Counted from the first letter of the stretch, positions 2,763 to 44,253 are shown. The stretch is DNA of 64,000 bases from an uncultured Nitrososphaerota archaeon (GCA_964518475.1 CAZFGR010000008.1:1-64000), one strand, 5' to 3'. The notes: a model not told the origin generated them from the letters alone. Program-made: numbers and translations.

Positions 2763-4079
2763 TTAAGTTTCTTCTCCCAGTAATAATTTTACGGCTTTAG
2801 TAATGGTATTTTCTTTTCCAAACCCTCCAGCCTTCGTTACTATGTACAATTCTCTAGATTTCATAGTTGCTTTTGTTAGCGGGACTCCTGGATCTATCTC
2901 ATCCACGATCTCTAGTGCATCTATTAGTAGTTTCCTACATGTATTTATGGCTATATCGCCCCCAGTTATCACCATGCCCGCGAGTTCTTTTCCTACATCG
3001 GTTGCGATCGCTTTGCCTAGTTCTCCAAGAAAACTGGCGATTTTTCCAGCAACCATCTCGCGGCTCAGACCCATGTTTTGCCCAACCTTCTGCGTCTTTT
3101 CTACATCCTCGCGGGATTTAGCGCTTCTAACCACTATACATCTTCTTCCTTGACTAATACTTTCTCTTGCCCTCTTAACTATCTCTTGGAAAACCTTTTC
3201 TGGATTTTTCAGGATCAAGGATGCATCAATATCTATTATTTCGCTATCCACATGCTCTTTCAAGTGCCTGACTTGTTCGAGAGTTGCTGGATTTACGGAT
3301 CCGCATAGACAAACTACATAGCTCCCCTCTATAGAGAGCTTTTTCTCGGACATACTTTCTTTCTCTCCCCAAGCCTTTGGCAGTTCTCTTGCTAAACCAG
3401 CGGATCCTGAATATATTGCTTCGCCATAATAATCTTTTATGGCGAGGGATATGTCTTGGAGATTTTCCTGTGTAGCAGCGTCAAAAACTATTATATTCGC
3501 CTCTCCGCGCAGCTCCTCCACTCTTTTTCTAATACTTTCCACTCCTCCCGAGACGTAATCATACGATACATGGCCTATTGTTCTCCTTGATTGCTTCTTT
3601 ATTATGGACAATACGTTTGCTTCCTTAACGGGTGATACTGGGTCATCAGCGAAGGGTGTGAGGTCTAGTGGAGAACCGTGAACAAGTAAGTAGCCTCCCA
3701 TAACTATCCTCCCATTCAATGGGAAGGCAGGGGTAAATAATGCTAATTCTCTACCTAATCCATCAAGAACCCCATCTAGTTCCACACCTATGTTTCCCCG
3801 CATCGTAGAATCTACTTTCTTATAGACCACTTCAACCACTTCACGTCGCAGTGCCTCCGCGACCTCTCTACATTTTTTATATGCTTTTTCTGGTGGATCT
3901 GCTCTACTCTCTGTGTTAATTACCACAACGTTGGCTAGTCCCCGTAGCCTATCTATTTTCTCGGTGATATTAGTGGGATCTATGATTACGTATGATTTGT
4001 ATTCGTATCTGGTAAACTGTACCCCCGTATCATTGGCTCCCGTTAAGTCATCAGCTATTATCACGTATCTAAAAACCAT
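2763..4079 (-). CDS. Four-carbon acid sugar kinase (DUF1537, DtnK/DenK-like)
   Basis: IADDLTGANDTG, YKKVDSTMRGN, GSAGLA, TGGDIA, TKAGGFG motifs. Confidence 0.93.
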   Translation of the reverse strand: MVFRYVIIADDLTGANDTGVQFTRYEYKSYVIIDPTNITEKIDRLRGLANVVVINTESRADPPEKAYKKCREVAEALRREVVEVVYKKVDSTMRGNIGVELDGVLDGLGRELALFTPAFPLNGRIVMGGYLLVHGSPLDLTPFADDPVSPVKEANVLSIIKKQSRRTIGHVSYDYVSGGVESIRKRVEELRGEANIIVFDAATQENLQDISLAIKDYYGEAIYSGSAGLARELPKAWGEKESMSEKKLSIEGSYVVCLCGSVNPATLEQVRHLKEHVDSEIIDIDASLILKNPEKVFQEIVKRARESISQGRRCIVVRSAKSREDVEKTQKVGQNMGLSREMVAGKIASFLGELGKAIATDVGKELAGMVITGGDIAINTCRKLLIDALEIVDEIDPGVPLTKATMKSRELYIVTKAGGFGKENTITKAVKLLLGEET

Positions 4080-4098
4080 TTCTACCAGCCCTTAATCT

Positions 4099-5127
4099 TC
4101 AGAATCGCTCTCTATACTTTCTACTATTCTTTACCATGAGGGCAGCGTATTTTATGGCGTTTATCATGCTACCTGGGTGCGCAGTTCCTTTACCCGCCCT
4201 ATTAAACGAGGTGCCATGATCCACAGATGTTCTGATAATAGGGAGGCCCAGTGTTATGTTAACGCCCTCATAAAAACCTAAAACCTTTATTGGAATGTGT
4301 CCTTGGTCATGATACATAGCGACAACAACATCGAAATCTCCTCTAATTGCTTTATAGAATATAGTATCCGCGGGCAATGGACCAACAGCATCAATACCTA
4401 ATTCTCTAGCCTCATTCACCGCTGGCTCTATCTCCTCTATTTCCTCCCTACCGAACAATCCCCCTTCTCCAGCATGGGGATTCAGAGCTGCTACCGCTAT
4501 TTTTGGACGTTCTATCCCAAAGAACTTTCTTAGACCTTCATCTGTTATCTTAATAACTGTCAAGACTCTGTCTTTTTGAATCAAGTCACATGCTTCTCTA
4601 AGAGATACATGCGTGGTAACGTGAGAGACTTTCAGATTTTTCGTGGTAAGCATCATTACCGCATGTCGAGCTTTGGTGAGATCTTTTAATAGTCCCGTAT
4701 GGCCATTGTAATGGTATCCAGCCTTGTTTATCGCCTCTTTGTTGATAGGTCCAGTAGCTATAGCATCTATTTCTCCTCTAAGCGCCAGATTAACGGCTTC
4801 TATGATATACTCCACAGAAGCTTTTCCAGCTTCTGCACTAACTCTTCCTATAGGTACTTTGTCGAGATCTACATTGTCTAGATCCAGAACATCTATTACG
4901 CCATGTTTATACTCAGCTTCTCCAACACTCTTGACAGAACGTACTTTCAAATGAGTAAGATTCGTGAATTTTAATGCTCTCTTAATTACTTTAGCATCCC
5001 CTATAACTATGGGTCGGGCGATATCATAGATCTCTCTCAACGAGAGTGCTTTAACAACGACTTCTGGCCCAATACCTGCTGGGTCACCCATTGTTATTCC
5101 TATTATTGGTCTCTCCTCATCGCTCAC
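4099..5127 (-). CDS. pdxA: PdxA-family dehydrogenase (likely PdxA2, 4-phospho-tetronate dehydrogenase)
   Basis: GITMGDPAGIGPE, GHT, LNPHAGEGG, AMYHDQGHIP, RTSVDHGT; GTG start at 5127 after a G-rich RBS; adjacent to a DUF1537 kinase. Confidence 0.93.
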   Translation of the reverse strand: MSDEERPIIGITMGDPAGIGPEVVVKALSLREIYDIARPIVIGDAKVIKRALKFTNLTHLKVRSVKSVGEAEYKHGVIDVLDLDNVDLDKVPIGRVSAEAGKASVEYIIEAVNLALRGEIDAIATGPINKEAINKAGYHYNGHTGLLKDLTKARHAVMMLTTKNLKVSHVTTHVSLREACDLIQKDRVLTVIKITDEGLRKFFGIERPKIAVAALNPHAGEGGLFGREEIEEIEPAVNEARELGIDAVGPLPADTIFYKAIRGDFDVVVAMYHDQGHIPIKVLGFYEGVNITLGLPIIRTSVDHGTSFNRAGKGTAHPGSMINAIKYAALMVKNSRKYRERF

Positions 5128-5140
5128 ACATAACCCCCCT

Positions 5141-6454
5141 CTATTCAAGAATCGGTAATGTGTCACAGCCGTGGGGAATTGCTACTATCCTGGCATTATC
5201 TCCATGCTTCTTAAAGGCCATTTTAAGGGCCTCATCTATGGTTTCCGCATATTTAAATCCGAGTTTCTCTGTCTCTTCTTCACTTATACCCTCGGAGACC
5301 AAGATAATATCCGCTCTTCTCCTTACCTTACCCCATGCGATTGCCAATGAAGCAGCTACTACATCCTTTACTTCTCCCAAATTTACAGCCCTATCAATCT
5401 CCTCCGGCTCCTTCTGAGTAAGCTCCAATACCTCTGGATGGGTAACCGCAACCCCCTCTGGGCACGGAGATACAATAATTATTGTTCCACCATCCTTTAC
5501 AACAATATCCGCTGGGTATAAAGCCTTGTGTGCTTGCCAAAACTCTAATTCGCATGGATAAGAACTCGCTACCACAATATCTGCCTTTCCTGGGGATTTT
5601 ACACCATAAATCTCCCTTGCACTCTCCACCCCTTTTAACCAAGCTTCCTGGAGGTCACCGAAGAAGACCCCGACAACTTCTTTATCAGCGTTTAATGTAG
5701 TATTAAGGATTGTATGAACACCAGTTTTTCTAGCTATCTCATCTATTAAATCCCTCACGGGGTTCCTAGGTATCCCTAACCAATGCCTCCTGCTCCTTAC
5801 ACTCAACATGTGGAAACTAGCGACTGTCTCGGGACTCGAGATTCCCGGCGCCACTATTTTACCTCCACCAGCATAGCCTGGGATGTGATGCGGCACAATA
5901 TTCCCGACACCTATTTTAAAATCGGCTTCGTAAACAATCTTATTCACGATTATTGGTGTTCCTTTCGAGCTCCCACCAATATATACCAGATTCTTGGGAT
6001 CCATCCATTCATGGTTAATAATCTCTACTCTCTCCACAACCTCTTTACCGAATTTTTCCAGAATCTCTTCCTTGGTCATATAGCGGTGAGTACCTAACGC
6101 GATTACAATCGTTATGTCTTCATCGAGGATGCCGGCCTCGTTCAACTTATCTAACAATGGTGGAATAAGATCCTTGGTTGGTGTTGGCCGGGTATTATCA
6201 TCCGCTACAATAACGACCTTATCTCCCCTCTTAACTAATTCTGACAGTTTCTTAGTGCCAATAGGGTTCTCCAGAGCCTTAAGAGTTTTCTGGCGAATCT
6301 CCTCGGAACTCCTTGCTCCGGGAATTTTACTGGGTTCTAAAACAGCTAATAGATTTCTTTTAGGGATCTCAAATGATAAGTATTTCCCTCCATAAGGCAA
6401 AAAAACCTCTACTCGGTCGCCTCGTTCGGCATAAAATCTCATCTTTCTCACCAT
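5141..6454 (-). CDS. larA: LarA-family nickel-pincer-dependent 2-hydroxy acid racemase/epimerase
   Basis: DDNTRPTP, ALGTHR, VPHHIPGYAGGGK, FH, WQAHK motifs. Confidence 0.92.
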   Translation of the reverse strand: MVRKMRFYAERGDRVEVFLPYGGKYLSFEIPKRNLLAVLEPSKIPGARSSEEIRQKTLKALENPIGTKKLSELVKRGDKVVIVADDNTRPTPTKDLIPPLLDKLNEAGILDEDITIVIALGTHRYMTKEEILEKFGKEVVERVEIINHEWMDPKNLVYIGGSSKGTPIIVNKIVYEADFKIGVGNIVPHHIPGYAGGGKIVAPGISSPETVASFHMLSVRSRRHWLGIPRNPVRDLIDEIARKTGVHTILNTTLNADKEVVGVFFGDLQEAWLKGVESAREIYGVKSPGKADIVVASSYPCELEFWQAHKALYPADIVVKDGGTIIIVSPCPEGVAVTHPEVLELTQKEPEEIDRAVNLGEVKDVVAASLAIAWGKVRRRADIILVSEGISEEETEKLGFKYAETIDEALKMAFKKHGDNARIVAIPHGCDTLPILE

Positions 6455-9389: not shown

Positions 9390-10709
9390 TTACGCTTTTT
9401 GGAGAGCCTCTATCAACCTATAATAACCCTCGAGAGCATTCATTAAGTCCTGCTTCCATATCCTCTCATCAGCACCGTGTATTCTATCAATCTCAATCTC
9501 CTTACTTGTTATGAAGAAATGATACGTGGGTATTCCAAGAGACCTTAGCCAAGATGAATCGCTCGACCCAGGCTGAATTGTTGGAATCGGGTTATACCCA
9601 ATCTGCTTTATAGTATCTGTTATTTTCTTAAAGAGTAGTGTGTTTGTTGGAGATATTGTAGCGGGGACATATGTCTGGAGTGTCAATTCATAACTATCCG
9701 TAGCTATCTGAGAGAGTACCGTTTTAAGAAGTCTCTCCACCCACTTATCATCCTGTTCGGGAAAAATCCGCGCATTCACAGTGATTTCCATATAATCTGG
9801 CAAGACATTATGTGCATCCCCCGCCCTTATCATAGTCTTGCTCAATATGATGTGGGAAAGAGCTACTAAGTATCGGGAAAAACTATCACCACGGTTCCTA
9901 GATAGCTTATTTATAAAGAATCTATTCATTAGCAGCTTTATTTTCCAGCCAAAGGTCTCCTCGAGAACATCCTTGAAAGTCTTAGAAATAAAGAATATTT
10001 TACTAGGCAATCTTAGCACGAATTCAGACCCAATTCTCAAGGGACTATACTTATCCTCAGCAATTATTCCTGTGTGTCCCGCGTTCCCCCTACATACAAC
10101 TTTGTACGAGACAGTTCCCTTTTCGCCTATTATAACAGCTTGGCCCTTATTGCCCCTAAATTTTATAAGTCCTCCGAGCTCCCCAACAGCACCATGAATG
10201 TGTTTAAAAATCCTAGGATGTTCTCGTACCAAGAACCTAATTCCATGGTTTTTGCTCTGTATTTCCTCATCAGCAGCTATTATTATTCTTATATTTCCTC
10301 TAAAACTATAATTAATTCTACTGAGAAGTACCGCTAAGTAGGTATAGACAGCGATTTGAGATTTATTATCTAAAGCGCCACGACCGTAAATGTAACCATC
10401 CTTTTCTATGCCAGAGAAGGGATCAATACTCCAGTTATTTCCAGGAGGAACCACATCACTGTGGCCGAGTAATAATAAATTGAACCCCTTTCCTCTTTTT
10501 CCGTTGATATCTATTATTAAGTTTCCTCTTCCCTCTTCGCTTTCTATTAGCTCGAAATCATGAATATCCTCAGCTTCTAGAACATTGATTATTTCGTATG
10601 CTACATCGCTTTCCCTAGCTCCTATAGATGGTATCCTTATAATATTTTTCAGCAATTTGCTGATCTCATCTATCTGTATAAGCTCTTTAGCCTCTTCCCA
10701 AGAAAGCAT
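9390..10709 (-). CDS. M20/M25/M40 family metallopeptidase/deacylase
   Basis: GHSDVVP, YGRGALDNK, ADEE, GSSD, IHGADE. Confidence 0.92.
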   Translation of the reverse strand: MLSWEEAKELIQIDEISKLLKNIIRIPSIGARESDVAYEIINVLEAEDIHDFELIESEEGRGNLIIDINGKRGKGFNLLLLGHSDVVPPGNNWSIDPFSGIEKDGYIYGRGALDNKSQIAVYTYLAVLLSRINYSFRGNIRIIIAADEEIQSKNHGIRFLVREHPRIFKHIHGAVGELGGLIKFRGNKGQAVIIGEKGTVSYKVVCRGNAGHTGIIAEDKYSPLRIGSEFVLRLPSKIFFISKTFKDVLEETFGWKIKLLMNRFFINKLSRNRGDSFSRYLVALSHIILSKTMIRAGDAHNVLPDYMEITVNARIFPEQDDKWVERLLKTVLSQIATDSYELTLQTYVPATISPTNTLLFKKITDTIKQIGYNPIPTIQPGSSDSSWLRSLGIPTYHFFITSKEIEIDRIHGADERIWKQDLMNALEGYYRLIEALQKA

Positions 10710-10873: not shown

Positions 10874-11851
10874 ATGATTCTTATTAATTATGAAAAGGTA
10901 CAGGATTTTGCTTCTAGACTCAAAAATATGAAGATTTCCGTAAGTGATTTCGCCGATGGCGTCTGTTTTCCTAGAAAGGATGCTAATGAGAAAGATGTTC
11001 TCAATTTCTTTTTCTTCATAGTTGCTATTGATCATAGAACATCTAGAAATGATTCCTTTATAGGGGAAGTTGATGGGGTGGTTTATCGAGGAAGCGATCT
11101 TCTCTATAGATTAGCTATGAATAAATTTATTGAGAATCCCTCATTTTTTGAGCCCTCTCGCATAGCCAAGTTAACTCTTAGGGAGGCTAAGGAGATATTC
11201 TCTGTTAAAAAGCCCGTAGAGAAGGTCGTAGAGGGAATCGAGTTAAGAGTATTTCTCCTACGTGATGCTGCTACGAAACTCATGAAACTATACGATGGTG
11301 GACTAGATTCTTTGTTAAGAAGCACTGATAATTATCTCTACAAAGATCCAGATGGAGGATTTATCGAGAAATTAAGAATCTTCAGGGCTTATGAAGATCC
11401 CGTAGAGAAAAAGCCTTTGCTACTGGCGAAGTTCTTAGAGCGTAGAGGAATTTTAAGAATAAGGGATCCCGAGAACAAACACGTGCCAGTGGATAATCAC
11501 TTAGTGAGGATAGCGATTAGGACGGGACTTGTGAAAATAATTGATAAAAATCTCTACGAGACATTCCGTTGGAAAAGAGAAGCTTCTTGGGAAGAGGATG
11601 TAATTATTAGATTAGTGATAAGGAAAAGTTATGACCTCGTTTCAAAAGAGGCTTCCATTGACCCATTCATACTAGATGACTTCTTATGGAGCTTTGGACG
11701 AACAGTTTGTTTACCAAGAAACCCTAGATGTGAATTATCTAACAAATATGACCCAGTAAAGTGTCCTCTAGCAGAGATCTGCGAAGCATATAGAGAAAAC
11801 GAGAAGAAGACCTTGAGGGAACATCTATACTTCTCTACATGGTATTACTGA
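10874..11851 (+). CDS. HhH-GPD-like / queuosine-salvage (DUF2419)-like protein with C-terminal 4-Cys Fe-S-type motif
   Basis: AIDHRT, DPVEKK, VPVDNHLVRIAIRTG, LDDFLWSFGRTVC-x6-C-x10-C-x5-C. Confidence 0.6.
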   Translation: MILINYEKVQDFASRLKNMKISVSDFADGVCFPRKDANEKDVLNFFFFIVAIDHRTSRNDSFIGEVDGVVYRGSDLLYRLAMNKFIENPSFFEPSRIAKLTLREAKEIFSVKKPVEKVVEGIELRVFLLRDAATKLMKLYDGGLDSLLRSTDNYLYKDPDGGFIEKLRIFRAYEDPVEKKPLLLAKFLERRGILRIRDPENKHVPVDNHLVRIAIRTGLVKIIDKNLYETFRWKREASWEEDVIIRLVIRKSYDLVSKEASIDPFILDDFLWSFGRTVCLPRNPRCELSNKYDPVKCPLAEICEAYRENEKKTLREHLYFSTWYY

Positions 11852-11956: not shown

Positions 11957-12616
11957 GTGAGGGCTATGGAGGAGTCGGTAGAAAGGTTGAAAGAGGAGAT
12001 TGTTAAGGTCGGGAAATATCTGCTTGATAAGGATCTTACGATAGGTTCTTCAGGTAATATAAGTGTGAGGGTTCGAGAGAAGGAACTTGTCTTGATAACA
12101 CCTAGTGGCGTGCCCTTTGATATCATGAAACCTAATGATATAGTAGTTGTGGACATGAATGGGGAGGTAGTGGAAGGGGAGCGAAACCCGTCAACAGAAA
12201 TGCCTACTCATCTCAGGATATATAAGGAGAGGAAAGATGTAAACGCTATTATTCACGCCCACGCAATCTATACAGGAGCACTCGCAGCCACTCACACATC
12301 AATCCCAGCAGTACTTGATGAGATGATACTTTATCTGGGTGGCGAAGTTGAAGTGGCGGAGTATGCACCACCAGGAACTGAGGAATTAGCTGAGAACGCC
12401 GTAAAGGCGCTTGGTAGAAAAAAAGCGGTCATTCTAGCTAATCATGGCGTACTAGTTTGTGGAAAGGATTTAAAGGACACATTAGAGATTCTTCTCAGAG
12501 TTGAACGTGTTGCTAGAATCTATATCCTATCAAAAATCATTGGAGAGCCTAAGAAATTGCCTAAAGAAGCTATAGAGCATGAGTTAGAGATATACGAGTT
12601 GCTCCTAGAGGGTTAG
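11957..12616 (+). CDS. Class II aldolase/adducin family (FucA-like)
   Basis: GNISVR, ITPSG, PSTE..H, HAH, LANHG zinc-binding motifs. Confidence 0.93.
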   Translation: MRAMEESVERLKEEIVKVGKYLLDKDLTIGSSGNISVRVREKELVLITPSGVPFDIMKPNDIVVVDMNGEVVEGERNPSTEMPTHLRIYKERKDVNAIIHAHAIYTGALAATHTSIPAVLDEMILYLGGEVEVAEYAPPGTEELAENAVKALGRKKAVILANHGVLVCGKDLKDTLEILLRVERVARIYILSKIIGEPKKLPKEAIEHELEIYELLLEG

Positions 12617-12620
12617 GGGT

Positions 12621-13589
12621 ATGGAGTATGCGGAACTTGGTAGAACGGGTATAAAAATCTCTAGGATTGGGATAGGAACTTGGCAGTGGGGCTCGTCTTC
12701 ATGGGGTTATGGAAAAGAATATACTGAGGAAGATCTTAGACAAGCTTTCGAAACGGCTATTGAGTATGGGATAAACTTTATTGATACGGCAGAGATGTAT
12801 GGAGGAGGAAAGAGCGAAGAACTCATAGGAGAGTTTATGGAAGGGAGAAGAGAAGAGGTAATAGTCGCTTCCAAGGTATCGCCTAACCACTTAACTTACC
12901 GAGGCGTTTTGAAAGCTTTTGAATGCAGCAGTATAAGACTGAGAACAGATTATATCGACTTGTACTATGTACACTGGCCGAATCCACTCATCCCAATGAA
13001 GTGGACCGCTAAGGCGTTTCTAGAACTATTGGAACAAGGTAAGATAAGAGCAATAGGGGTCAGTAACTTTAGTTTGAAGAGGATGATAAAGTTTAACGAA
13101 TTAGTCGGGAATCAGCTTGCAGCTAATCAGGTAGAATATAACTTGCTTCATAGAGAGCCCGAGAAGGATCTCCTCCCCTATTGCTTAGAACATGGAATCA
13201 CTCTAGTCGCCTATAGTCCCCTAGCAAAAGGTGCAGTTCTAGGCAAGTATAATGAGAAAAGCCTCCCAAAAGATTTTTGGAGAAGACTTAGCACGATTTT
13301 TACTCCAGTCAATATGAGGAGACTACGACCGTTGATAAATACTATAAAGGAGATAGCCGATAACTATGGCGTAAAACCAGTGAATGTTGTTCTTAGATAC
13401 TTGATAGATAAAGGTGCTATACCTATAATCGGTGTCAAGAGGAAGAGCCATGTAGAGGATCTAGTCCTAACCTTTGACTTTAACATGACCAGTGACGAGA
13501 GAAAGCTTTTAGAAGAAAAATTAGATAGTTTGAGACTTGTTAGATGGAGAGCTTATCCTTGGGTTATAAAAAGGGTTATAAAACCCTAA
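12621..13589 (+). CDS. Aldo/keto reductase
   Basis: GIGTWQWG, IDTAEMYG, SK, DLYYVHWP, IGVSNF, YSPLAKG. Confidence 0.95.
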   Translation: MEYAELGRTGIKISRIGIGTWQWGSSSWGYGKEYTEEDLRQAFETAIEYGINFIDTAEMYGGGKSEELIGEFMEGRREEVIVASKVSPNHLTYRGVLKAFECSSIRLRTDYIDLYYVHWPNPLIPMKWTAKAFLELLEQGKIRAIGVSNFSLKRMIKFNELVGNQLAANQVEYNLLHREPEKDLLPYCLEHGITLVAYSPLAKGAVLGKYNEKSLPKDFWRRLSTIFTPVNMRRLRPLINTIKEIADNYGVKPVNVVLRYLIDKGAIPIIGVKRKSHVEDLVLTFDFNMTSDERKLLEEKLDSLRLVRWRAYPWVIKRVIKP

Positions 13590-15415
13590 GCACCTTCCCA
13601 TAATAGCTCTGCCAAATCCCTTAAGCCTAATTTTTCTAGCACTTCTTTCTTAGGTTTTCCAGTATCCCAGTCCCATCCTCGCAACTTATAGTACTCCATT
13701 AAAGCAGTTTCTAGTTGATCTTTAGGAGATTGCCCAGCAATAGCCCCCTTCTCGTAGGGTTTTAAGACGATTTCTGGTAGTGAGTCATCTTTTCTAGATA
13801 TTCCATATAGGTTGTTTATACCTCTTTTCAAATTATAGATACGCTCTCCGATATTGTATAGTTTTTCTGGAGAAAAGTCCCACCCTGTGGCTAAGCTAAG
13901 TAGCTTAGAGATCTCTTTAGATGTTAGGTTTGTAAAGATGCACAAAATCAGGGAATTGAAGACTTCTCTAAGATTTTGAATCCCGATTATACTTGGGACT
14001 CTCTCAATGAGATTTTGTTGTTCTCCCAGAGTTAGATTGAAATATTCATCCTCTAACACTCCCATATCAACTGTGTAAGCATCTCCCCTTAAGTGGCATG
14101 CTCCTCTATTACCTGTCATGTAAACTAATGCCATGCTAAAGAATGCTCTTGGATCATGCATGGGTATCTCCAAACCCTTCACGTGAGCTGCTTCATTGGC
14201 GTTGATACCGAGTTTCTCAGCAATATTCTTAACACCCTCCGCTAGCAAGTCCCCAATATCTTCCCGATACGCAATCTTCTTAATAACCTCTATCAACCCG
14301 TCACCATCTCCCCAAGAAATCCTGATTTTCTCTCTATTAAATACTCCTTTTTCAATCAAGTAGTTTAGGAAACTAATGCTTACCCCAGTTGAGATCGTGT
14401 CTAATCCAAGATCATTACAGAGATGATTGGCTAGGACAATCTTCTCAATATCCATCACCAGATTTAGTGACCCAAGAGCAGCTAAGGTTTCGTATTCAGG
14501 ACCATGAACTATTTTCTCGCCCAATCTAATCTCTCTACCACAACCAATAGGGCATGCGAAGCAAGCTTTTGGCCTCACTTGGAATAATTCATTTAGTTTC
14601 GACCCAGAAAGGCTCTCTGGGTCAAAATCTAGACTCGTAAAATATTTTCCCGGAATATCGCCTAATTCGTATCCGACCTCGAAGTAACTCGCAGTACCTA
14701 ATTCTCTTAGCGTTCTGGATACTAGCGAATCAGCGATTTCCTTGAATAAATTTCGGGCATACTCATAGAATTCTGATGAGTATACTTGGATACTCTTCTC
14801 CCCTCTTACCGCTATAGCTTTCAGGTTCTTCCAACCCATAACAGCGCCAAGTCCCGTTCTCCCAGCAGCTCTTCCATCATCATTTATAATAGCCGCGTAC
14901 TTAACTAAGTTTTCACCTGCGGGCCCGATGCATGCGATTCTGAATTCCTTACCGTGGTTCTTCTTGATGATTTTCATTGTTTCATAGACTCCTAGGCCCC
15001 ATAATTCTTCCCCATCCTCAAAGATAACATCCTCTCCATCGATAAGAATATATACAGGCTTCTCGCTCTTGCCCACGAACATTAATCCGTCATACCCCGT
15101 TCTCCTCAATTCTGCTCCAAAGAACCCACCGGAAGTAGCCTCTCCTAAGATCCCTGTAAGAGGCGAGAGTGAAATCACTGCATGCCTGCCGCTAGCAGGG
15201 GCTAGAGTCCCAGTTAAGGGACCAGTCATAAATATTAATGGATTTTCCTCAGAGAAAGGAGCGACTTTTTGGCCTCTTGTGTATTTGAGAAAAAGATATG
15301 CTCCTAGTCCTGCGCCGCCAATAAAGTTTTTAAGCATGTTTTCTTTGAGTTCTAGGATCTCTAGATTTTTCTTAGATAAATTAATTATAAGGATTTTTCC
15401 ATGATAGCCGTACAT
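13586..15415 (-). CDS. aor: Aldehyde:ferredoxin oxidoreductase family (tungsten)
   Basis: FIGGAGLG, IGPAGENLV, AGRTGLGAVMG, CFACPIGC, GPEYET, DLGLDTIS, RGACHL. Confidence 0.95.
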   Translation of the reverse strand: MYGYHGKILIINLSKKNLEILELKENMLKNFIGGAGLGAYLFLKYTRGQKVAPFSEENPLIFMTGPLTGTLAPASGRHAVISLSPLTGILGEATSGGFFGAELRRTGYDGLMFVGKSEKPVYILIDGEDVIFEDGEELWGLGVYETMKIIKKNHGKEFRIACIGPAGENLVKYAAIINDDGRAAGRTGLGAVMGWKNLKAIAVRGEKSIQVYSSEFYEYARNLFKEIADSLVSRTLRELGTASYFEVGYELGDIPGKYFTSLDFDPESLSGSKLNELFQVRPKACFACPIGCGREIRLGEKIVHGPEYETLAALGSLNLVMDIEKIVLANHLCNDLGLDTISTGVSISFLNYLIEKGVFNREKIRISWGDGDGLIEVIKKIAYREDIGDLLAEGVKNIAEKLGINANEAAHVKGLEIPMHDPRAFFSMALVYMTGNRGACHLRGDAYTVDMGVLEDEYFNLTLGEQQNLIERVPSIIGIQNLREVFNSLILCIFTNLTSKEISKLLSLATGWDFSPEKLYNIGERIYNLKRGINNLYGISRKDDSLPEIVLKPYEKGAIAGQSPKDQLETALMEYYKLRGWDWDTGKPKKEVLEKLGLRDLAELLWEGA

Positions 15416-15433
15416 GATGTATAGTCCCCCTTA

Positions 15434-16945
15434 CTACAAGTGTTTATTAACTCTCTCATAATAGTCACGCCAATCCATATATTTATTTCTCAAGGCACTT
15501 ACTTTATCATCGTCTGGTTTTATCTCCTTACAAGGTACTAGGGTCTTCAACGCTTCTTCAATACTTGAGAATATGCCTGCGTTGGTATATATTATGGCAG
15601 CACATGCGAGAGCCGAACCATTATGTTTAGAGGTTACTCTACATTTCTCTCCCAATGCTGATGCTAGTAGGGTATTAAAACCACCTATTCTAGTAACTCC
15701 ACCCGTTAATCCTACGCTCGATTCTTTTCTTCCTATAATTTCCCTGACTTGTTCTATATTACCTATCAATGCAAATACTAATGATTCTACAAAACCATAG
15801 GCTAAAGTCTCTAGAGTCTCTTTCTTCCCAAACGGAATGGATGGATTAGGAAGAATTATCGTGGAAAAGATTTTATAATCCATCATACGGCTAGAGTCCA
15901 TTATATTTTCCCCAAAATAGAACTTGGCTAAAGACTGTTCTGGTGCGGCTTTTTCTATAACGTTACTTAGCCACTTGTACGGCTCTTCTAGCTCTTTTAG
16001 AAAGCTTTTTATAAACCAATCAATAAGTCCACCAAAGGTTCCAGTATTGCTTTCGACAACCCACTTGCTTTCCATTATATACTTCTCGGTCCATAATCTC
16101 CTCTTGGGATCTACTACTGGTTTATCATAGATGCCTTGTACAGGAGCGGTATACCCAATAACGCAACCCACATCTCCAACATCAAACGCTTGAGTAGCCA
16201 GAGTCCCGAACTGTGTGTCTCCTCCCCCTAAGAAGACTGGAACATCTCTAAAGATATGGAGCTTATCTTTTACGTCCTCTCTCAGGTACCCAGCTAGTTC
16301 TCCAGTTCTTTTTATCTCTGGTAACAAGCTACCCTCAATCCCAAATATTGATAAAATTTCCTTGTCCCATTTGCAACTTTTGATATTCATGAGCATTGTG
16401 GCCGAGGAAATAGTTGGTTCTGTTAAAAATTCACCCGTCAAGAGATATATTATAGCATCGTGAATAGACATTATTTTGTCTATCTTCTCCACTAATTCTT
16501 TTTCATTCTCCACAAACCACATATAACGATAAGGCGTGAATAGGAATGGTGGATAGTGGCCAGTTTTATTATAGATCTTCTCTAGATCTTCGCTAGATAA
16601 TTGAAAATCAACTAGTGCTCCTCTAGAATCAATATTTGGCCCAAAGTACAGTATATTATCATCCTTGTCCATGAACACAGCGTTCATTCTCTGGGAAATA
16701 CATGAGATCCCGACTAGCTTCTCTCTGCTCTCTCCAACCTCCATAAAGAGTTCATTAATCAATCCTATTAGTAAGTCTCCTAGGTTTTTTTCCCCATATT
16801 CTATAACATTAGGAAAGAGTTCGTCAGATACGATGGTCCATCGCTTTAATACACTTGCTAACGTGTTTCCTTCCTTATCTATCAGAAACATTTTCAAGGC
16901 ACTGGATCCAGCATCGATTATTAGAACAAGCTTCTCCTTTTTCAC
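15434..16945 (-). CDS. FGGY-family carbohydrate kinase, LsrK-like
   Basis: IDAGSS, SQR...GPNIDSRG, GGGDTQ, LTGG. Confidence 0.88.
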   Translation of the reverse strand: MKKEKLVLIIDAGSSALKMFLIDKEGNTLASVLKRWTIVSDELFPNVIEYGEKNLGDLLIGLINELFMEVGESREKLVGISCISQRMNAVFMDKDDNILYFGPNIDSRGALVDFQLSSEDLEKIYNKTGHYPPFLFTPYRYMWFVENEKELVEKIDKIMSIHDAIIYLLTGEFLTEPTISSATMLMNIKSCKWDKEILSIFGIEGSLLPEIKRTGELAGYLREDVKDKLHIFRDVPVFLGGGDTQFGTLATQAFDVGDVGCVIGYTAPVQGIYDKPVVDPKRRLWTEKYIMESKWVVESNTGTFGGLIDWFIKSFLKELEEPYKWLSNVIEKAAPEQSLAKFYFGENIMDSSRMMDYKIFSTIILPNPSIPFGKKETLETLAYGFVESLVFALIGNIEQVREIIGRKESSVGLTGGVTRIGGFNTLLASALGEKCRVTSKHNGSALACAAIIYTNAGIFSSIEEALKTLVPCKEIKPDDDKVSALRNKYMDWRDYYERVNKHL

Positions 16946-17949
16946 GTTTTCAGAGCCTCCTTATTGTAGAGAAATTTCGGTTTCTCTCCCTTCAAGATCC
17001 GTATTATGTCGTAGGCAATCATGTAGGAGTGAATCTTAATAGTCTCGTAACTAGCTCCACCGATATGGGGGGTCAGAACAACATTATCCAATTGGAGAAA
17101 TCTATTAGTAGAATCTATGGGCTCCTCCGCAGAGACGTCCAAACCGGCACCAGCTATCCATCCCTCTTTGAGAGCCCTAAATAACGCATCCTCATCAACG
17201 ACTACGGAACTAGCTGTGTTTATCAAGATAGCATTATTCTTCATCTTTTTCAGTTCCTCTTCCCCGATCATATCGATTGTTTCCTCCGTCGGGGGAACAT
17301 GAATCGTAACAATATCCGATTCTTGGAGAAGCTCTTCCAAAGAAACTCTTCTTGCCCTCACACATCTTATTTTTTCATCACTCACATAAGGATCATACAC
17401 AAGCAGTTTTACACCGAAGCCTCTAAGCTTTTTAGCCACTCTATACCCTATCTTTCCAAGTCCTATAATACCAACAGTCTTCCCAGAGAGTTCTGCTCCT
17501 CTTAAACTTTCGTAAAATTCTGCGAATTTCTCGAAAGAATCAATAACTATTTTCCCAGATCTAAGCAATCGATCAGCACGAATAATTTTTCTAAGAACAG
17601 CCAGCATTAGCGCAATAGTTAATTCAGCGACGGCATTAGCATTTCTCCCTGGCGTGTATAGAACATAAACTCCTTTCCTATTAGCCGCTTCAATGTCAAT
17701 ATTCTTGCTTGGATCATTCCTACAAATACCAATAATTCTTAGAGCCGTGTTATCTATTATTTTATCGGACACATATTCAAGCTCAACAACAAGTATATCA
17801 CAAGAGTCCTTGTTGAGAATCTCTATAAGCTCTTTCTCCCCAAGAATCCGCTTACTCCTGATCCATGGATGATAAGATACCTTGATATCATTCTCCTCTA
17901 ACAACTTAAGAGCTGACGAGTAAAACGGAGCGGTGATAAAAGCCTTCAT
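16942..17949 (-). CDS. D-isomer-specific 2-hydroxyacid dehydrogenase family (SerA2-like)
   Basis: PGRNANAVAE, GLGKIG, YDPY, GLDV..EP, TPHIGG; ATG at 17949 is more plausible than the ORF-track start. Confidence 0.92.
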   Translation of the reverse strand: MKAFITAPFYSSALKLLEENDIKVSYHPWIRSKRILGEKELIEILNKDSCDILVVELEYVSDKIIDNTALRIIGICRNDPSKNIDIEAANRKGVYVLYTPGRNANAVAELTIALMLAVLRKIIRADRLLRSGKIVIDSFEKFAEFYESLRGAELSGKTVGIIGLGKIGYRVAKKLRGFGVKLLVYDPYVSDEKIRCVRARRVSLEELLQESDIVTIHVPPTEETIDMIGEEELKKMKNNAILINTASSVVVDEDALFRALKEGWIAGAGLDVSAEEPIDSTNRFLQLDNVVLTPHIGGASYETIKIHSYMIAYDIIRILKGEKPKFLYNKEALKT

Positions 17950-17971
17950 AGCAACACCGAAAAAAAAATAT

Positions 17972-18298
17972 TTAGAAAAGAACCTTGCGTAGTTTGAGAA
18001 GATCACTAGCAGAGCCTTTTATTTTTATTTTTCCAGTCATGTAGGCTTTGACTGGACTCATAGACTTATTTATTACTTTTACGAAAGTTTCAGAATCCAT
18101 CGTAATAGTGACGTCGGGTGCTTCAATACTTCCCGGCTCAAATTTCTTAAGCTCACCATTCTCAATCTCTAAAATATATGAAGCGTTCCTATCCGGGAAA
18201 TTCAACAAGATAGTCTTTGAGAAACCACTTAAAGAACTTTTAATACTGGGATCAGAAAAACGTTCCTTTACAATATTTATGGCTTCTTCAAAACTCAT
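17972..18298 (-). CDS. SCP2 sterol/lipid-binding domain protein
   Basis: PDVTITMDSETF...MSPVKAYMTGKIKIKG signature. Confidence 0.9.
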   Translation of the reverse strand: MSFEEAINIVKERFSDPSIKSSLSGFSKTILLNFPDRNASYILEIENGELKKFEPGSIEAPDVTITMDSETFVKVINKSMSPVKAYMTGKIKIKGSASDLLKLRKVLF

Positions 18299-19183: not shown

Positions 19184-19561
19184 TTAAGCAAGGATCGTTG
19201 AGATAGCAGTTTGCAGTATTCGCTTAAGTTTCTTTTTATTCAATGAGTATACTCGATATTTTCCAACTCTCTCTTCCCTGGTGATTCCCAATTTCTTTAA
19301 CACGGATAAATTATGAGAGACGAGTGTTTGATCAACGTTTAAAATTGAGGTCAAAGCGCATACTGGGAGTGCTGCCTGGGATAGGAGTATTAAGATCAAG
19401 ACCCTTATTCTATTTGAGAACAATTTTTTAATAAGCATTAATTCGTCGATGAGTTTATCATCCGGTTTCTTAAGGACCAAATCTTTAAGATAATTATAGA
19501 TTTCTCCAGAGCACTTATCTCCAAACTTTTTCTTAACTACTTCAACTACATCTATTTTCAT
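19184..19561 (-). CDS. ArsR/SmtB-family transcriptional regulator
   Basis: SNRIRVLIL, LPVCAL, DQTLVSHNLSVLKKLG, RVGKYRVYSL. Confidence 0.9.
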   Translation of the reverse strand: MKIDVVEVVKKKFGDKCSGEIYNYLKDLVLKKPDDKLIDELMLIKKLFSNRIRVLILILLSQAALPVCALTSILNVDQTLVSHNLSVLKKLGITREERVGKYRVYSLNKKKLKRILQTAISTILA

Positions 19562-19610
19562 TATTACCTCCTCTGTCTTAGCAATATATTCATTAAGTTT
19601 TAATTCCTAA

Positions 19611-19665
19611 ATATAAAAGTATCTTCATATGAAAAAAATCTCATATGAAAAAGATTTCATATAAG
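19611..19665. promoter_or_regulatory. Tandem 16-bp ArsR-type operator repeats between divergent arsR and tauE
   Basis: ATATAAAAGTATCTTC|ATATGAAAAAAATCTC|ATATGAAAAAGATTTC|ATATAAG, forming overlapping ATATGAA-n-TTCATAT-like inverted repeats. Confidence 0.7.
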
Positions 19666-19679
19666 AGAAAGTGAGAAAG

Positions 19680-20474
19680 ATGAATCCTATATTATTCTGG
19701 ATTTATATTTTAATTATTGCATTAGTGCCAGGTTTCTTAGCTACATGGTTAGGAGTAGGAGGATGTTTTCTTAGAATCCCAATGCTAATGTATTGGTTGG
19801 GATTAAACATAAAGCAAGCATACTTTGTGAATCAAGCAGTAATAGCCGTTACTACCATTCCGGGCGTAATAGAGCACTATAGGAAAAAACATATATATTT
19901 AAAAGGCACTATCATAGCAGGTATAAGTGCAGCGCTTGGCGTGAGTTTGGGAGCATATATAGTAGCAAAGTATTTACCAACCAATATCTTAAAGATAATT
20001 TTTGGTTTTGCATGTATTGGAATAGGCATCTATGTAGCAAGAAACACCATAAAGATGCGCAAAAAACTTACCAAACGTATAACTATCCAAGAAACTAAGC
20101 AGTTAGAATGTGGTCCTAGATTAATCCTTTTAATGTTTTTAGCGGGATTTGCTACAGGAATCTGTGGGTTTGGAGGAGGTATATACTATCTCCCGATATA
20201 TTTCTTTCTACAATACCCGACTCACGTAGCTATAGGAACCTCAAGCGCTCAAATGATTATTACTGCTAGCATAGGAGCCTCTGTACTGGCATATTATGGA
20301 TTCATGAATATCCTTATACTCGTGTATGTTGGAGTCTTCACCCTTATAGCCTCTTGGATAGGGGCACGTTTATCGGCTAAAACGATGCCATGGATTCTTA
20401 GGATAGTGTATGCGGTCTTAATAATTTTAGCAGGAGGATACGTAGCTATTGATGGGTTAACCCGTGTACTCTGA
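19680..20474 (+). CDS. TauE/SafE sulfite exporter family membrane protein
   Basis: Duplicated GVGGC..IP / GFGGG..YLP motifs, AIGTS, about 8 TM helices. Confidence 0.9.
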   Translation: MNPILFWIYILIIALVPGFLATWLGVGGCFLRIPMLMYWLGLNIKQAYFVNQAVIAVTTIPGVIEHYRKKHIYLKGTIIAGISAALGVSLGAYIVAKYLPTNILKIIFGFACIGIGIYVARNTIKMRKKLTKRITIQETKQLECGPRLILLMFLAGFATGICGFGGGIYYLPIYFFLQYPTHVAIGTSSAQMIITASIGASVLAYYGFMNILILVYVGVFTLIASWIGARLSAKTMPWILRIVYAVLIILAGGYVAIDGLTRVL

Positions 20475-42516: not shown

Positions 42517-44253
42517 TCATAATTCTCTTAGCTCATAATAAGTGTTGAGTGCGTGTTTAAATTCTTCTTTGCTCAGTCTACGTTCTTCTGTTCCGATTTT
42601 GATAGGTTCTTTAAAGAATCTTTCTGGAAGATAGTCTTTGGAAAGACCAGTTTTTTCATTAAAGTTTCTGGCTAAAGAAACTATCTCTTTCAGAGCATTC
42701 CTGAAGTTTTCGTAACTTATGTTAAACCCAGTCACGGTATTATAGAGTTTCCACATGAGTTCTAGGGACATGATATCTCTAGAAAACTTGCACAGTATTA
42801 GACTATCGAAACCCGTCATAAAGTCCTCAAATTCCACGAGTTTGGCGATTTTTCTTCTACTTAGATCATTCGGGGGGCCTGCTAGACCCTTAATATCAAC
42901 GTAATAAGCCATCATTCTTAAGTGGCAGGCACCTCTCTGAGACGTAGCGTAGGCAAGAGCCATTCCTTTTAATGTTCTAGGATCATAGCCAGGGGGCTCG
43001 AGTCCTCTTACGTGCACAGCTATGTTTTCAAGTCCCAGCTTTTTTGCTGCCTTGGCTACACCATTAGCTAGTAAATCTCCGATGCCCCGACGATACGTTA
43101 TATCCTCTATTAACTGGATTGCTTTTTCCACATCTCCATAGCTTATTTCAAGCGAGAGTTTTCCTCTCTTAGAAGCCTCAGCGGCAAAACCAAGGACGTT
43201 ACCTAGGGTTATCGTGTCTAACCCATAAGCATCCGCTAGATAGTTAAGGTATACCAATTCTCCTAAATCATCTATTCCGAACAGACCGCCAAGAGCAAAA
43301 ATGGTTTCATACTCTGGCCCATCCATCTCGATTTTTCCCCACTTAGTCTGTACGCTAACGTACCTACCACAAGCAATAAAACAGTTCCAACAAGCATATG
43401 TGCGTTGCAGAATAGACTTCACAGCCTCGGGACCAATATTCTCCCAACGCTCAAAACGACCTTGTGACCAGTAATATGTAGGAAAGAATCCCATCTCATT
43501 AGCTAATGCAACCATAGCTGAGGTTCCATACTCATGCATGCGTTGGATGCCAGGAGTTTTGTTCCGTGCATCTATTAATCCCTTAATGAGATCCTCAAGT
43601 TCTCCTGGATTCGCTGGCTCGATCCAATTATCTCCACTGACAAAGACCAGTGCTTTAAGATTTTTAGATCCCATGACAGCTCCACCGCCACACCTCCCAG
43701 CCTGTCTCCATTTATCGACACATATGGATGCGAAGTATACCTTGTTCTCTCCCGCTGGACCAATTGTAGCTATGCTTGCTTTTTGCCCGTGTTCTCTTCT
43801 TAGAGCTTCATCAGCTTCATCAACCTTCATGCCCCATAAATCCCTAGCATCCCTAAACTCTATCCCATCCTCCGTGAAGAGAATATACACGGGTTTCTCA
43901 GATCTTCCAACTATTATTACTACGTCATATCCAACCCATTTTGGGTATTTAGGTAGAGAACCCCCGACAAAAGATTCCCCATACCCACCCGTAAGAGGTG
44001 AGCGAAAAACGAAAGCCACCTTGGAAGTCATCGGTACTCTAGTCCCATTCAATGGGCCAGCCGCCATAATAAATGGCTGCTCAGGAGCCAAGAGATCAGC
44101 ATCCACTCTGGCTAATTCAAGAAGATAATAAGCCCCAAAACCTTTCCCACCAATAAAACGTCTAGCCAAGCCTTCTTTAAGCTCCTCGACACGCCATTGC
44201 TTTTTAGAAAGATCAATAAACAATGTTTTCCCAGTATATCCATGCAAGACCAA
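42517..44253 (-). CDS. aor: Aldehyde:ferredoxin oxidoreductase family (second paralogue)
   Basis: FIGGKGFG, IGPAGEN, AGRCGGGAVMGSK, CWNCFIAC, GPEYET, GLDTIT, RGACHL. Confidence 0.95.
   Translation of the reverse strand: MVLHGYTGKTLFIDLSKKQWRVEELKEGLARRFIGGKGFGAYYLLELARVDADLLAPEQPFIMAAGPLNGTRVPMTSKVAFVFRSPLTGGYGESFVGGSLPKYPKWVGYDVVIIVGRSEKPVYILFTEDGIEFRDARDLWGMKVDEADEALRREHGQKASIATIGPAGENKVYFASICVDKWRQAGRCGGGAVMGSKNLKALVFVSGDNWIEPANPGELEDLIKGLIDARNKTPGIQRMHEYGTSAMVALANEMGFFPTYYWSQGRFERWENIGPEAVKSILQRTYACWNCFIACGRYVSVQTKWGKIEMDGPEYETIFALGGLFGIDDLGELVYLNYLADAYGLDTITLGNVLGFAAEASKRGKLSLEISYGDVEKAIQLIEDITYRRGIGDLLANGVAKAAKKLGLENIAVHVRGLEPPGYDPRTLKGMALAYATSQRGACHLRMMAYYVDIKGLAGPPNDLSRRKIAKLVEFEDFMTGFDSLILCKFSRDIMSLELMWKLYNTVTGFNISYENFRNALKEIVSLARNFNEKTGLSKDYLPERFFKEPIKIGTEERRLSKEEFKHALNTYYELREL

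Follow-up and report, generated by a model that had tools for sequence, protein, structure and literature searches.

The DNA analysed here is a 64,000-nucleotide stretch (CAZFGR010000008.1:1-64000, assembly GCA_964518475.1), referred to throughout as the window, and is one of the contigs of a 2.33-Mb metagenome-assembled genome (MAG; 91% complete) of an uncultured Nitrososphaerota archaeon. Our subject is a compact locus at positions 11,957 to 18,298, in which six genes encode an SCP2-fold protein, a 2-hydroxyacid-family dehydrogenase (DH), an FGGY-family kinase, an aldehyde:ferredoxin oxidoreductase of the putative tungsten type (AOR), a class II aldolase and an aldo-keto reductase (AKR). An initial annotation had proposed that these genes form a single undescribed pathway, and the analysis reported here followed up that proposal. 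The genes are the following.

17972-18298, minus strand: SCP2-fold small protein, 108 aa; first gene of the minus-strand operon; PF02036 53.8 bits, Alkyl_sulf_C 46.5 bits
16942-17949, minus strand: DH of the YoaD/SerA2-like subfamily, 335 aa; ATG start at 17949; 2-Hacid_dh_C 201 bits
15434-16945, minus strand: FGGY-family kinase, YoaC-like, in a clade sister to LsrK, 503 aa; Pfam FGGY_N/C; GTG start
13586-15415, minus strand: AOR, 609 aa; Pfam AFOR_N and AFOR_C
11957-12616, plus strand: class II (zinc) aldolase of the dihydroxyacetone phosphate (DHAP) type, FucA/DrdA-like, 219 aa; Aldolase_II 191 bits
12621-13589, plus strand: AKR, 322 aa; Aldo_ket_red 238 bits; accessory member

Reading of the sequence places a 22-nt gap between the SCP2 and DH genes, a 4-nt overlap (GTGA) between the DH and kinase genes and an 18-nt gap between the kinase and AOR genes; on the opposite strand the aldolase and AKR genes are separated by 4 nt, and the AKR and AOR genes meet tail-to-tail, their stop codons overlapping by 4 nt. 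Shine-Dalgarno-like GGAGG/GGGGG boxes lie ahead of the kinase and AOR starts, the GTG of the kinase sitting 11 nt past AAGGAGG. The gene content, domains and junctions described in the initial annotation were confirmed by the listing of open reading frames (ORFs), by Pfam and by this reading, and the motifs that it quoted were all located, with ITAP, YHPW, LVVE and CRNDPSKNID lying in the DH and IPAVLDEMILYLGGEV lying in the aldolase. The four central enzymes all fall below the curated NCBIfam equivalog cut-offs; they can be placed in known superfamilies, but no named function attaches to them. The sequencing-run listing places window DNA in sediment and hydrothermal-vent metagenomes as well; all of the listed runs are DNA runs, with no RNA run among them.

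Conservation of the gene cluster

A scan with a 7-sequence kinase alignment returned 78 further loci, in 75 of which a DH gene adjoins the kinase gene, while an aldolase is found in 49, an AOR in 25 and an SCP2 gene in 19. We also grouped all ORFs of 88 non-redundant loci, and in this clustered set a FucA-like aldolase is present in 52 loci, an AOR in 28 and SCP2 in 25. None of the 25 loci with SCP2 lacks an aldolase, and 21 of them have an AOR. Aldolase, AOR and SCP2 occur jointly in 20 of the 88 loci. The broader claim of the initial annotation, that all six genes constitute one conserved module, had co-clustering elsewhere as a test set beforehand, and it stands for five of the six; it does not extend to the AKR, an occasional member with homologues near the module in merely 6-7 loci. 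The core of the module is the pair of a YoaD/SerA2-type NAD-dependent DH and a YoaC-type FGGY kinase, to which a FucA-like zinc aldolase is usually added; the full form has AOR and SCP2 too, and in this genome an AKR.

The module is carried by Asgard archaea, Bathyarchaeia, Thermoplasmata, Chloroflexota and Bacillota. Loci of the same phylum from other families contain DH, kinase and aldolase in 8 of 8 cases, and a scan with a DH alignment added Thermoplasmata, Thorarchaeota, Nitrososphaerales, Hermod-, Heimdall- and Atabeyarchaeia and one Chloroflexia genome. At least four gene orders occur: SCP2-DH-kinase-aldolase-AOR in Thor, Njord and other loci, AOR-SCP2-aldolase-kinase-DH in the Hod/Hermod group, SCP2-AOR-DH-aldolase opposite the kinase in Bathyarchaeia, and kinase-DH-AOR-SCP2-aldolase in one Chloroflexia genome. 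As the order differs between lineages, the linkage has been maintained through rearrangement. Related lineages are non-independent samples, but the loci still represent a minimum of seven lineages from two domains. The synteny counts led us to reject the idea that unrelated genes lie side by side by chance.

Two natural DH::aldolase fusions were identified, one of 560 aa in a Hermodarchaeota MAG (L025:8001-9683, plus strand) and one of 557 aa in a Promethearchaeota MAG (L177:8945-10618, plus strand), and both fusion genes are preceded by kinase and SCP2 genes. In each of these two loci a further class II aldolase gene, separate from the fusion, lies some 5 kb downstream. Substitutions in the same context point in a similar direction: a non-orthologous FGGY kinase takes the kinase position in actinobacterial loci, and a second, more distant class II aldolase clade, placed in the tree on the side of E. 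coli YgbL, takes the aldolase position in Hod, Bathy and some bacterial clusters, which argues that the three activities are needed together.

Several other genes were observed near the module. An M20-family peptidase/deacylase gene (9390-10709, minus strand, in the window) lies at the aldolase side in 6-7 loci of differing Asgard and Chloroflexota lineages (L014, L103, L105, L161, L162, L178). Downstream of the cluster AOR in four loci (L019, L126, L132, L151) is an NfnA/NfnB-like pair, with a DHODB Fe-S domain in one protein and Fer4_20 and Pyr_redox_2 in the other, which could couple reduced ferredoxin with NAD(P)H. In four related Asgard loci of Hod/Hermod type (L159, L162, L168, L178), a PlsC-type acyltransferase gene (PF01553) adjoins the DH gene and is convergent to the module. 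An ATP-binding cassette (ABC) ATPase and ABC-2 permease pair is located just upstream of SCP2-DH, and divergent from it, in Thor-type loci (L128, L130, L133, L134, L136, L144, L145, L155), and three Chloroflexota loci (L123, L127, L137) have a comparable pair close to the module.

Within the window itself, a 325-aa ORF directly upstream of the aldolase gene (10874-11851, plus strand) has no above-threshold Pfam match and resembles the Qng1/DUF2419 queuosine-salvage N-glycosidases (Atlas feature score 0.97-0.98, TM 0.88; Pfam Q_salvage at a weak E = 0.003); no homologue of it lies beside the module in any other locus. A divergent pair upstream of the SCP2 operon (19184-20474) encodes an ArsR/SmtB-type regulator and a TauE/SafE-family exporter. 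Homologues of the genes labelled unk331, ArsR and TauE are absent from all other loci, and for this reason the three were not counted as module members. Separate from the module, three co-directional genes at 2763-6454 (minus strand) encode a DUF1537-type four-carbon acid-sugar kinase (SBD_N/NBD_C), PdxA and a LarA-like racemase, an operon that looks like a threonate/erythronate-type catabolic operon with a nickel-pincer epimerase added.

Enzyme families and their named relatives

The DH belongs to the D-2-hydroxyacid dehydrogenase family, matching PF02826 at 201 bits and PF00389 at 45 bits and containing GLGKIG...YDP, TPHIGG and the acidic residue of DVxxxEP. The catalytic His295 is kept, and the signature of its subfamily (TAP, Y.PW, VVE, R..P.N.D and P.RN..AVAE) is invariant. 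Its best matches in NCBIfam and the PDB are glyoxylate reductase and phosphoglycerate dehydrogenase (PGDH), with NCBIfam scores well under the respective equivalog cut-offs (272 vs 455 and 242 vs 454). The canonical arginine of the N-x-A/S-R-G motif, which in this family binds the substrate carboxylate, is a serine in the window DH (NTASS) and in a congener (NAASS), and is retained in most other relatives. The aspartate that follows the Rossmann beta-2 strand (YDP), the usual mark of NAD preference, is also retained; the DH would therefore prefer NAD and hence probably act in the oxidative direction.

The kinase is a member of the FGGY family, with a FGGY_N match of 135 bits, a FGGY_C match of 25.4 bits, slightly below the cut-off of 27, and full-length alignment to LsrK and XylB. 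It is single-copy in the source genome, and its nearest named relative, at 44% identity, is from 'Candidatus Njordarchaeum guaymaensis', which would place the source organism with the Asgard archaea, in the genus-level group of that species. LsrK is both its best solved match (5ya0, followed by a gluconate kinase) and its best NCBIfam model, at 157 bits against a cut-off of 528. In our trees the DH-linked kinases of the module type, those of the actinobacterial mycobacterial-type loci excepted, form one clade sister to true LsrK, with support of 0.99-1.0 for the separation. The description of this enzyme as LsrK-like thus holds in the sense that LsrK is its closest solved and curated relative, but the module kinases are a sister clade and not LsrK itself. 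The surroundings also depart from those of the Lsr pathway for autoinducer-2 (AI-2): neither LsrF, LsrG, the LsrACDB transporter nor LsrR is among the conserved neighbours of the loci, and neither LuxS nor MtnN was found in the 91%-complete source genome. In two genomes of an actinobacterial class (L207, L208), a kinase of the true LsrK clade is directly preceded by a related DH gene, so that the DH-kinase pairing reaches into the LsrK clade itself.

The aldolase matches PF00596 over the full length of the profile (191 bits against a gathering score of 22.2), which places it in the class II aldolase/adducin superfamily, and no second class II aldolase was found in the source genome. Its best solved matches, each of them deposited as a fuculose phosphate aldolase, are S. 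pneumoniae FucA (3e-53) and 6btd (7e-46); we take 6btd to be the B. thuringiensis 5-deoxyribulose-1-phosphate aldolase DrdA. The three zinc histidines, the catalytic Glu73 and the phosphate site (Asn29, Thr/Ser43-Gly44, Ser71-Ser72) are kept in the motifs SGNIS, ITPSG, PSTE, HAH and NHG and are invariant in 14 relatives. Tyr113 of FucA, which in the neighbouring subunit serves as the acid/base for the aldehyde, is replaced by Asp-Glu (IPAIHYM in FucA, IPAVLDEM in the window); Glu122 is invariant in the 14 relatives, and 55 of 57 cluster aldolases have Glu or Asp at its position. The window aldolase shares 34% identity with E. coli FucA and 26% with each of two other enzymes, the decarboxylase YgbL/OtnC and the epimerase SgbE. 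Scores fall short of the FucA equivalog cut-offs (PRK06833, 217 vs 264 bits; TIGR01086, 122 vs 400) and of the OtnC cut-off (130 vs 250 bits), and no OtnI or DUF1537 gene lies within the module. In the AKR (238 bits in Pfam), the Asp-Tyr-Lys-His tetrad is legible as DTAEMY, SK and VHW, with positions assigned by eye.

The AOR matches AFOR_N (260 bits) and AFOR_C (384 bits) and aligns over its full length with P. furiosus AOR (1aor, E = 4e-124), and it has four cysteines for a 4Fe-4S cluster, three in a CxxCxxxC motif at 285-292 (Cys285, 288, 292) together with Cys492; these features suggest a tungsten-type enzyme. Most of the cluster-linked AORs group in a single clade, from which the four remaining AOR paralogues of the source genome are excluded. 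Of the five AOR genes in that genome, a second one lies in the window at 42517-44253 (minus strand) and is 39% identical. The small SCP2 protein scores 53.8 bits against a gathering score of 21.3, its nearest solved chains are SCP2 domains, and its Atlas model (pTM 0.84) has a predicted SCP2 fold, with TM of 0.8-0.9 to SCP2 clusters. SCP2 proved to be a genuine member of the module: it is present in 25 of the 88 loci, always with an aldolase, and the module copy is the sole SCP2 gene found in the source genome. The best reading is that it handles a hydrophobic ligand, a putative role. A complex prediction of SCP2 with the DH and the aldolase scored 0.00, which is no verdict and allows no inference on binding.

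Two sets of named relatives were compared with the module. The first is the yoaD-yoaC-yoaB operon of Bacillus. We sampled 201 Bacilli genomes and checked 20 Bacilli loci for S-adenosylmethionine (SAM) riboswitches, and one of the 20 has such an element (89.6 bits), followed by a DH gene, an FGGY kinase gene and a major facilitator superfamily (MFS) transporter gene (L205:1284-5276, minus strand). The DH of this locus is 37% identical to the window DH over its full length and has the same motifs, and in trees its kinase nests inside the clade of the window kinase. The B. subtilis yoaD gene carries a SAM riboswitch (PMC12121620), and the only published functional idea for yoaDCB, offered as an explicit guess, is a conversion of cysteine through glycerate to phosphoglycerate (PMC2885750). 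The layout of riboswitch, DH, kinase and MFS transporter matches the published yoaDCB operon, and it is this architecture that suggests the identity of the two; in contrast to the full module, the Bacilli operon lacks aldolase, AOR and SCP2.

The second set is mycobacterial. The initial annotation had likened the DH and aldolase to mycobacterial serA2 and fucA, and we evaluated this by running the NCBIfam FucA model PRK05874 against 251 genomes of one actinobacterial class. Three high-GC genomes of 5.0-5.6 Mb passed the cut-off, and each of them has the aldolase gene directly behind a DH gene. A divergent FGGY gene lies upstream by tblastn in two of them, and in the third the FGGY call comes from ORF size, position and grouping in the tree with the kinase of another locus (L227). 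These DHs are 37-40% identical to the window DH over the full length and the aldolases 37-38%, with IDEF at the Tyr113 site and the signature motifs common to both. The kinase, however, falls on the LyxK/XylB side of the FGGY tree, and neither SCP2 nor AOR homologues were detected in the 13-14 kb around these loci. The likeness therefore extends to the DH motifs, the Asp-Glu at the Tyr113 site and the layout of an FGGY gene divergent from a DH-aldolase pair, as tested on the genomes that passed PRK05874, but not to the kinase, which is of a different clade. The recruitment of a different FGGY kinase beside a shared DH-aldolase pair argues that a kinase is required. Given the NCBIfam model and the Rv0727c-Rv0729 (fucA-serA2-xylB) gene order, we presume these loci to be of the mycobacterial type. 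The papers that mention serA2/Rv0728c give no function for it, and in the literature we found no assigned function for the kinase-DH-aldolase triad, for yoaD/yoaC or for an Asgard cluster of this kind.

A proposed route and its alternatives

From the gene identities, the conserved linkage, the fusions, the family relationships and the retained catalytic residues we infer a route, including every chemical step, the order of steps and the class of substrate. On balance we think that the module is one copy of a widespread catabolic or salvage route in which some sugar-like compound is cleaved to give DHAP and an aldehyde. In this route the kinase would phosphorylate the primary hydroxyl of a polyhydroxylated compound with a free terminal -CHOH-CH2OH, the DH would oxidise the neighbouring carbon, and the aldolase would cleave the resulting ketose-1-phosphate-type intermediate into DHAP and R-CHO. 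The AOR would then oxidise R-CHO to the acid with ferredoxin, or the AKR would reduce it to the alcohol, and SCP2 may carry a poorly soluble substrate or the aldehyde. With the AOR, the net conversion would be substrate + ATP + NAD+ + oxidised ferredoxin to DHAP + R-COOH + NADH + reduced ferredoxin.

The initial annotation had placed the DH first, oxidising a polyol to a ketose ahead of phosphorylation. We favour, by analogy, a kinase-first order, because the DH is fused to the aldolase, because the nearest characterised chemistry in the DH family, that of phosphoglycerate and 4-phosphoerythronate dehydrogenases, oxidises the carbon adjoining CH2-O-phosphate, and because the carboxylate-binding arginine is dispensable. 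The DH::aldolase fusions fit the sequence kinase, DH, aldolase at least as well as a DH-first order.

This interpretation must be weighed against several points that speak the other way. We know of no D-2-hydroxyacid-family enzyme that oxidises free polyols or polyol phosphates, and the position that, by comparison with human PHGDH, would correspond to the phosphate-binding arginine of PGDH is an invariant glutamate in the DH subfamily. The aldolase has exchanged the Tyr113 of FucA, as described above. About a third of the loci show no aldolase nearby, so that the DH-kinase pair may feed another pathway there. None of 10 other bacterial loci, from Chloroflexota, Bacillota, Deltaproteobacteria and Binatia, yielded a SAM riboswitch. 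The MFS transporters that adjoin the module in three lineages are mutually unrelated and therefore offer no common substrate clue. Finally, we found no measured activity for any module member, and no paper assigning one.

Regarding the substrate, a small deoxy or 5-substituted pentose-derived polyol or ketose, for example a by-product of SAM or nucleoside use, is a possibility that we put forward tentatively. The hints in this direction are the SAM riboswitch in Bacilli, the kinship with LsrK, the likeness of the aldolase to 6btd, and the presence of MTAP and MtnA in a source genome in which the module aldolase is the sole class II aldolase; the Qng1-like gene upstream is a further hint, from a weak match that is not conserved elsewhere. 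A polyol with a hydrophobic tail seems to us a less probable substrate, hinted at by the strict association of SCP2 with the aldolase and by the ABC-2 genes beside Thor and some Chloroflexota clusters. The remainder of the probability we assign to compounds of some other class.

A specific and frankly speculative version of the hydrophobic substrate, which we hold to be a long shot, is that anaerobic archaea and bacteria of sediments use the full module on ribose-derived polyol chains bound to lipids, recovering the last three carbons of the chain as DHAP, with bacteriohopanetetrol as the obvious candidate. Here C35 would be phosphorylated and C34 oxidised, and a retro-aldol cleavage between C33 and C32 would release a C32 hopanoid aldehyde, to be converted by the AOR into C32 hopanoic acid or by the AKR into C32 hopanol. 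The idea fits a sterol-carrier-type protein, ABC-2 exporter genes beside some clusters and carriers that are sediment taxa. In one anoxic deposit, the ββ-C32 acid is the most abundant hopanoic acid (PMC11884234).

One may postulate instead that the genes serve ordinary catabolism of fuculose, rhamnulose or ribulose type, in which the kinase would form the ketose-1-phosphate, the aldolase would produce DHAP and lactaldehyde or glycolaldehyde, the AOR would form lactate or glycolate, the DH would act downstream (lactate to pyruvate, or glycolate to glyoxylate) and SCP2 would be incidental. Such a scheme would give the DH a conventional substrate, as 2-hydroxyacid dehydrogenases normally use acids of this kind and the best DH matches are glyoxylate reductase and PGDH; it would also agree with an aldolase that is closest to true FucA and with an AOR that adjoins the aldolase in many loci. 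Yet the DH is the most faithful neighbour of the kinase (75/78) even where neither AOR nor aldolase is nearby, and it is the aldolase, not the AOR, to which it is fused. The scheme is further at odds with the lack of a conserved isomerase to supply the ketose, with the serine in place of the carboxylate arginine in the window DH, with scores that reach no curated FucA or FucK cut-off, and with the strict co-occurrence of SCP2 and aldolase, and we consider it rather unlikely.

The kinase tree raises another scenario, related to the AI-2 alternative that the initial annotation had offered: a coenzyme A-independent variant of the Lsr pathway acting on 4,5-dihydroxy-2,3-pentanedione (DPD) or on 1-deoxyosones, in which the kinase would phosphorylate the diketone, the DH would reduce a carbonyl, and the aldolase would release DHAP and acetaldehyde for oxidation by the AOR. 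An alpha-diketone resembles a 2-oxo acid without its carboxylate, which fits the Arg-to-Ser change in the DH, and the SAM link in Bacilli suits a product of the SAM cycle, as the sister relationship to LsrK suits a DPD-like substrate. This alternative is nevertheless weakened by the failure to find LuxS and MtnN in the 91%-complete genome, which makes an endogenous source of DPD doubtful, and by the lack of any conserved LsrG- or LsrF-like gene in the loci; the NAD-type cofactor site suggests oxidation rather than reduction, and SCP2 is left without a role. We regard it as quite improbable.

Slightly less probable still is an acid-sugar route akin to Otn, in which the AOR would convert an aldose to an aldonate, the DH would oxidise C2, the kinase would phosphorylate the keto acid and the aldolase homologue would act as an OtnC-like beta-keto-acid decarboxylase, giving DHAP or a pentulose phosphate. 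The window aldolase is more similar to FucA (34%) than to YgbL (26%), despite its 130 bits on the OtnC model and the position of the second cluster-aldolase clade on the YgbL side; and although the DH would here perform the canonical chemistry of its family, the arginine expected to bind the carboxylate is missing in the window DH. FGGY kinases do act on acid sugars, and a gluconate kinase is the second-best solved match, but no OtnI-like isomerase is conserved and the window already has a canonical DUF1537 kinase-PdxA-LarA operon at 2763-6454.

A biosynthetic direction, in which the aldolase would condense DHAP with an aldehyde (from reverse AOR action or delivered by SCP2) to build a polyol head group or backbone that the DH then reduces, would draw on the established reversibility of class II aldolases and AORs, on the PlsC-type acyltransferase gene by the module in four related Asgard loci and on the lipid connection that SCP2 suggests, but it leaves the kinase without a role after an already phosphorylated aldol product, sits poorly with an NAD-type DH and NfnAB neighbours that fit catabolism and with a module that spans very different lineages with different lipids, and is in our view very unlikely.

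Comparison with known pathways and significance

All of the enzyme families in the module are known, and its overall scheme recalls kinase-aldolase sugar routes and the DHAP shunt. In the E. coli L-fucose branch (fucK, fucA, fucO/aldA), as proposed for the module, an FGGY kinase and a class II zinc aldolase produce DHAP and an aldehyde that is then reduced or oxidised, and FucA shares the metal, glutamate and phosphate residues of the window aldolase. The module differs in having no isomerase, in the DH as constant partner of a kinase that is not of the FucK clade, in the change of Tyr113 to Asp-Glu, in a ferredoxin-dependent AOR for the aldehyde and in the presence of SCP2. The DHAP shunt and 5-deoxyribose salvage (MtnP or MtnK, MtnA, Ald2; DrdK-DrdI-DrdA) likewise employ a FucA-like aldolase to yield DHAP and acetaldehyde or (methylthio)acetaldehyde, on which an alcohol or aldehyde oxidoreductase then acts, and the MTAP, MtnA and single class II aldolase of the source genome recall them; the known shunts, however, use an anomeric kinase or phosphorylase and an isomerase in place of an FGGY kinase and a DH, and lack SCP2.

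The order that we favour has precedents in GlpK/GlpD for glycerol and in Brucella EryA/EryB for erythritol, where an FGGY kinase acts on a primary hydroxyl and a dehydrogenase then acts on the neighbouring carbon. Those dehydrogenases are flavoproteins and not members of the 2-hydroxyacid family, and no direct aldolase cleavage follows. To our knowledge, the constant 2-hydroxyacid-family DH, the aldolase with the Tyr-to-Asp-Glu change, and the dedicated AOR with its SCP2 partner have no counterpart in any described pathway, and we found none. Nor did we find the module in the published metabolic reconstructions that were accessible, although it is frequent in Asgard lineages, Bathyarchaeia, Thermoplasmata and Dehalococcoidia, uncultured groups that are dominant in anoxic sediments.

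The module joins three long-standing puzzles, namely the S-box yoaD-yoaC genes of Bacillus, the serA2-fucA-type pair of mycobacteria-like genomes and the role of archaeal SCP2. A cultured carrier (Pelolinea submarina, whose locus L146 has kinase, DH, aldolase and AOR), the natural fusions and the riboswitch-controlled Bacilli homologue offer experimental handles. Identification of the substrate would give a function to thousands of genes at once and would supply models of anaerobic carbon turnover with a ferredoxin-yielding entry to DHAP. Should the substrate prove to be a lipid polyol or a by-product of SAM use, the module would represent a new salvage or lipid-scavenging pathway; and the hopanoid version, if true, would provide an enzymatic origin for the dominant hopanoic acid of sediments.

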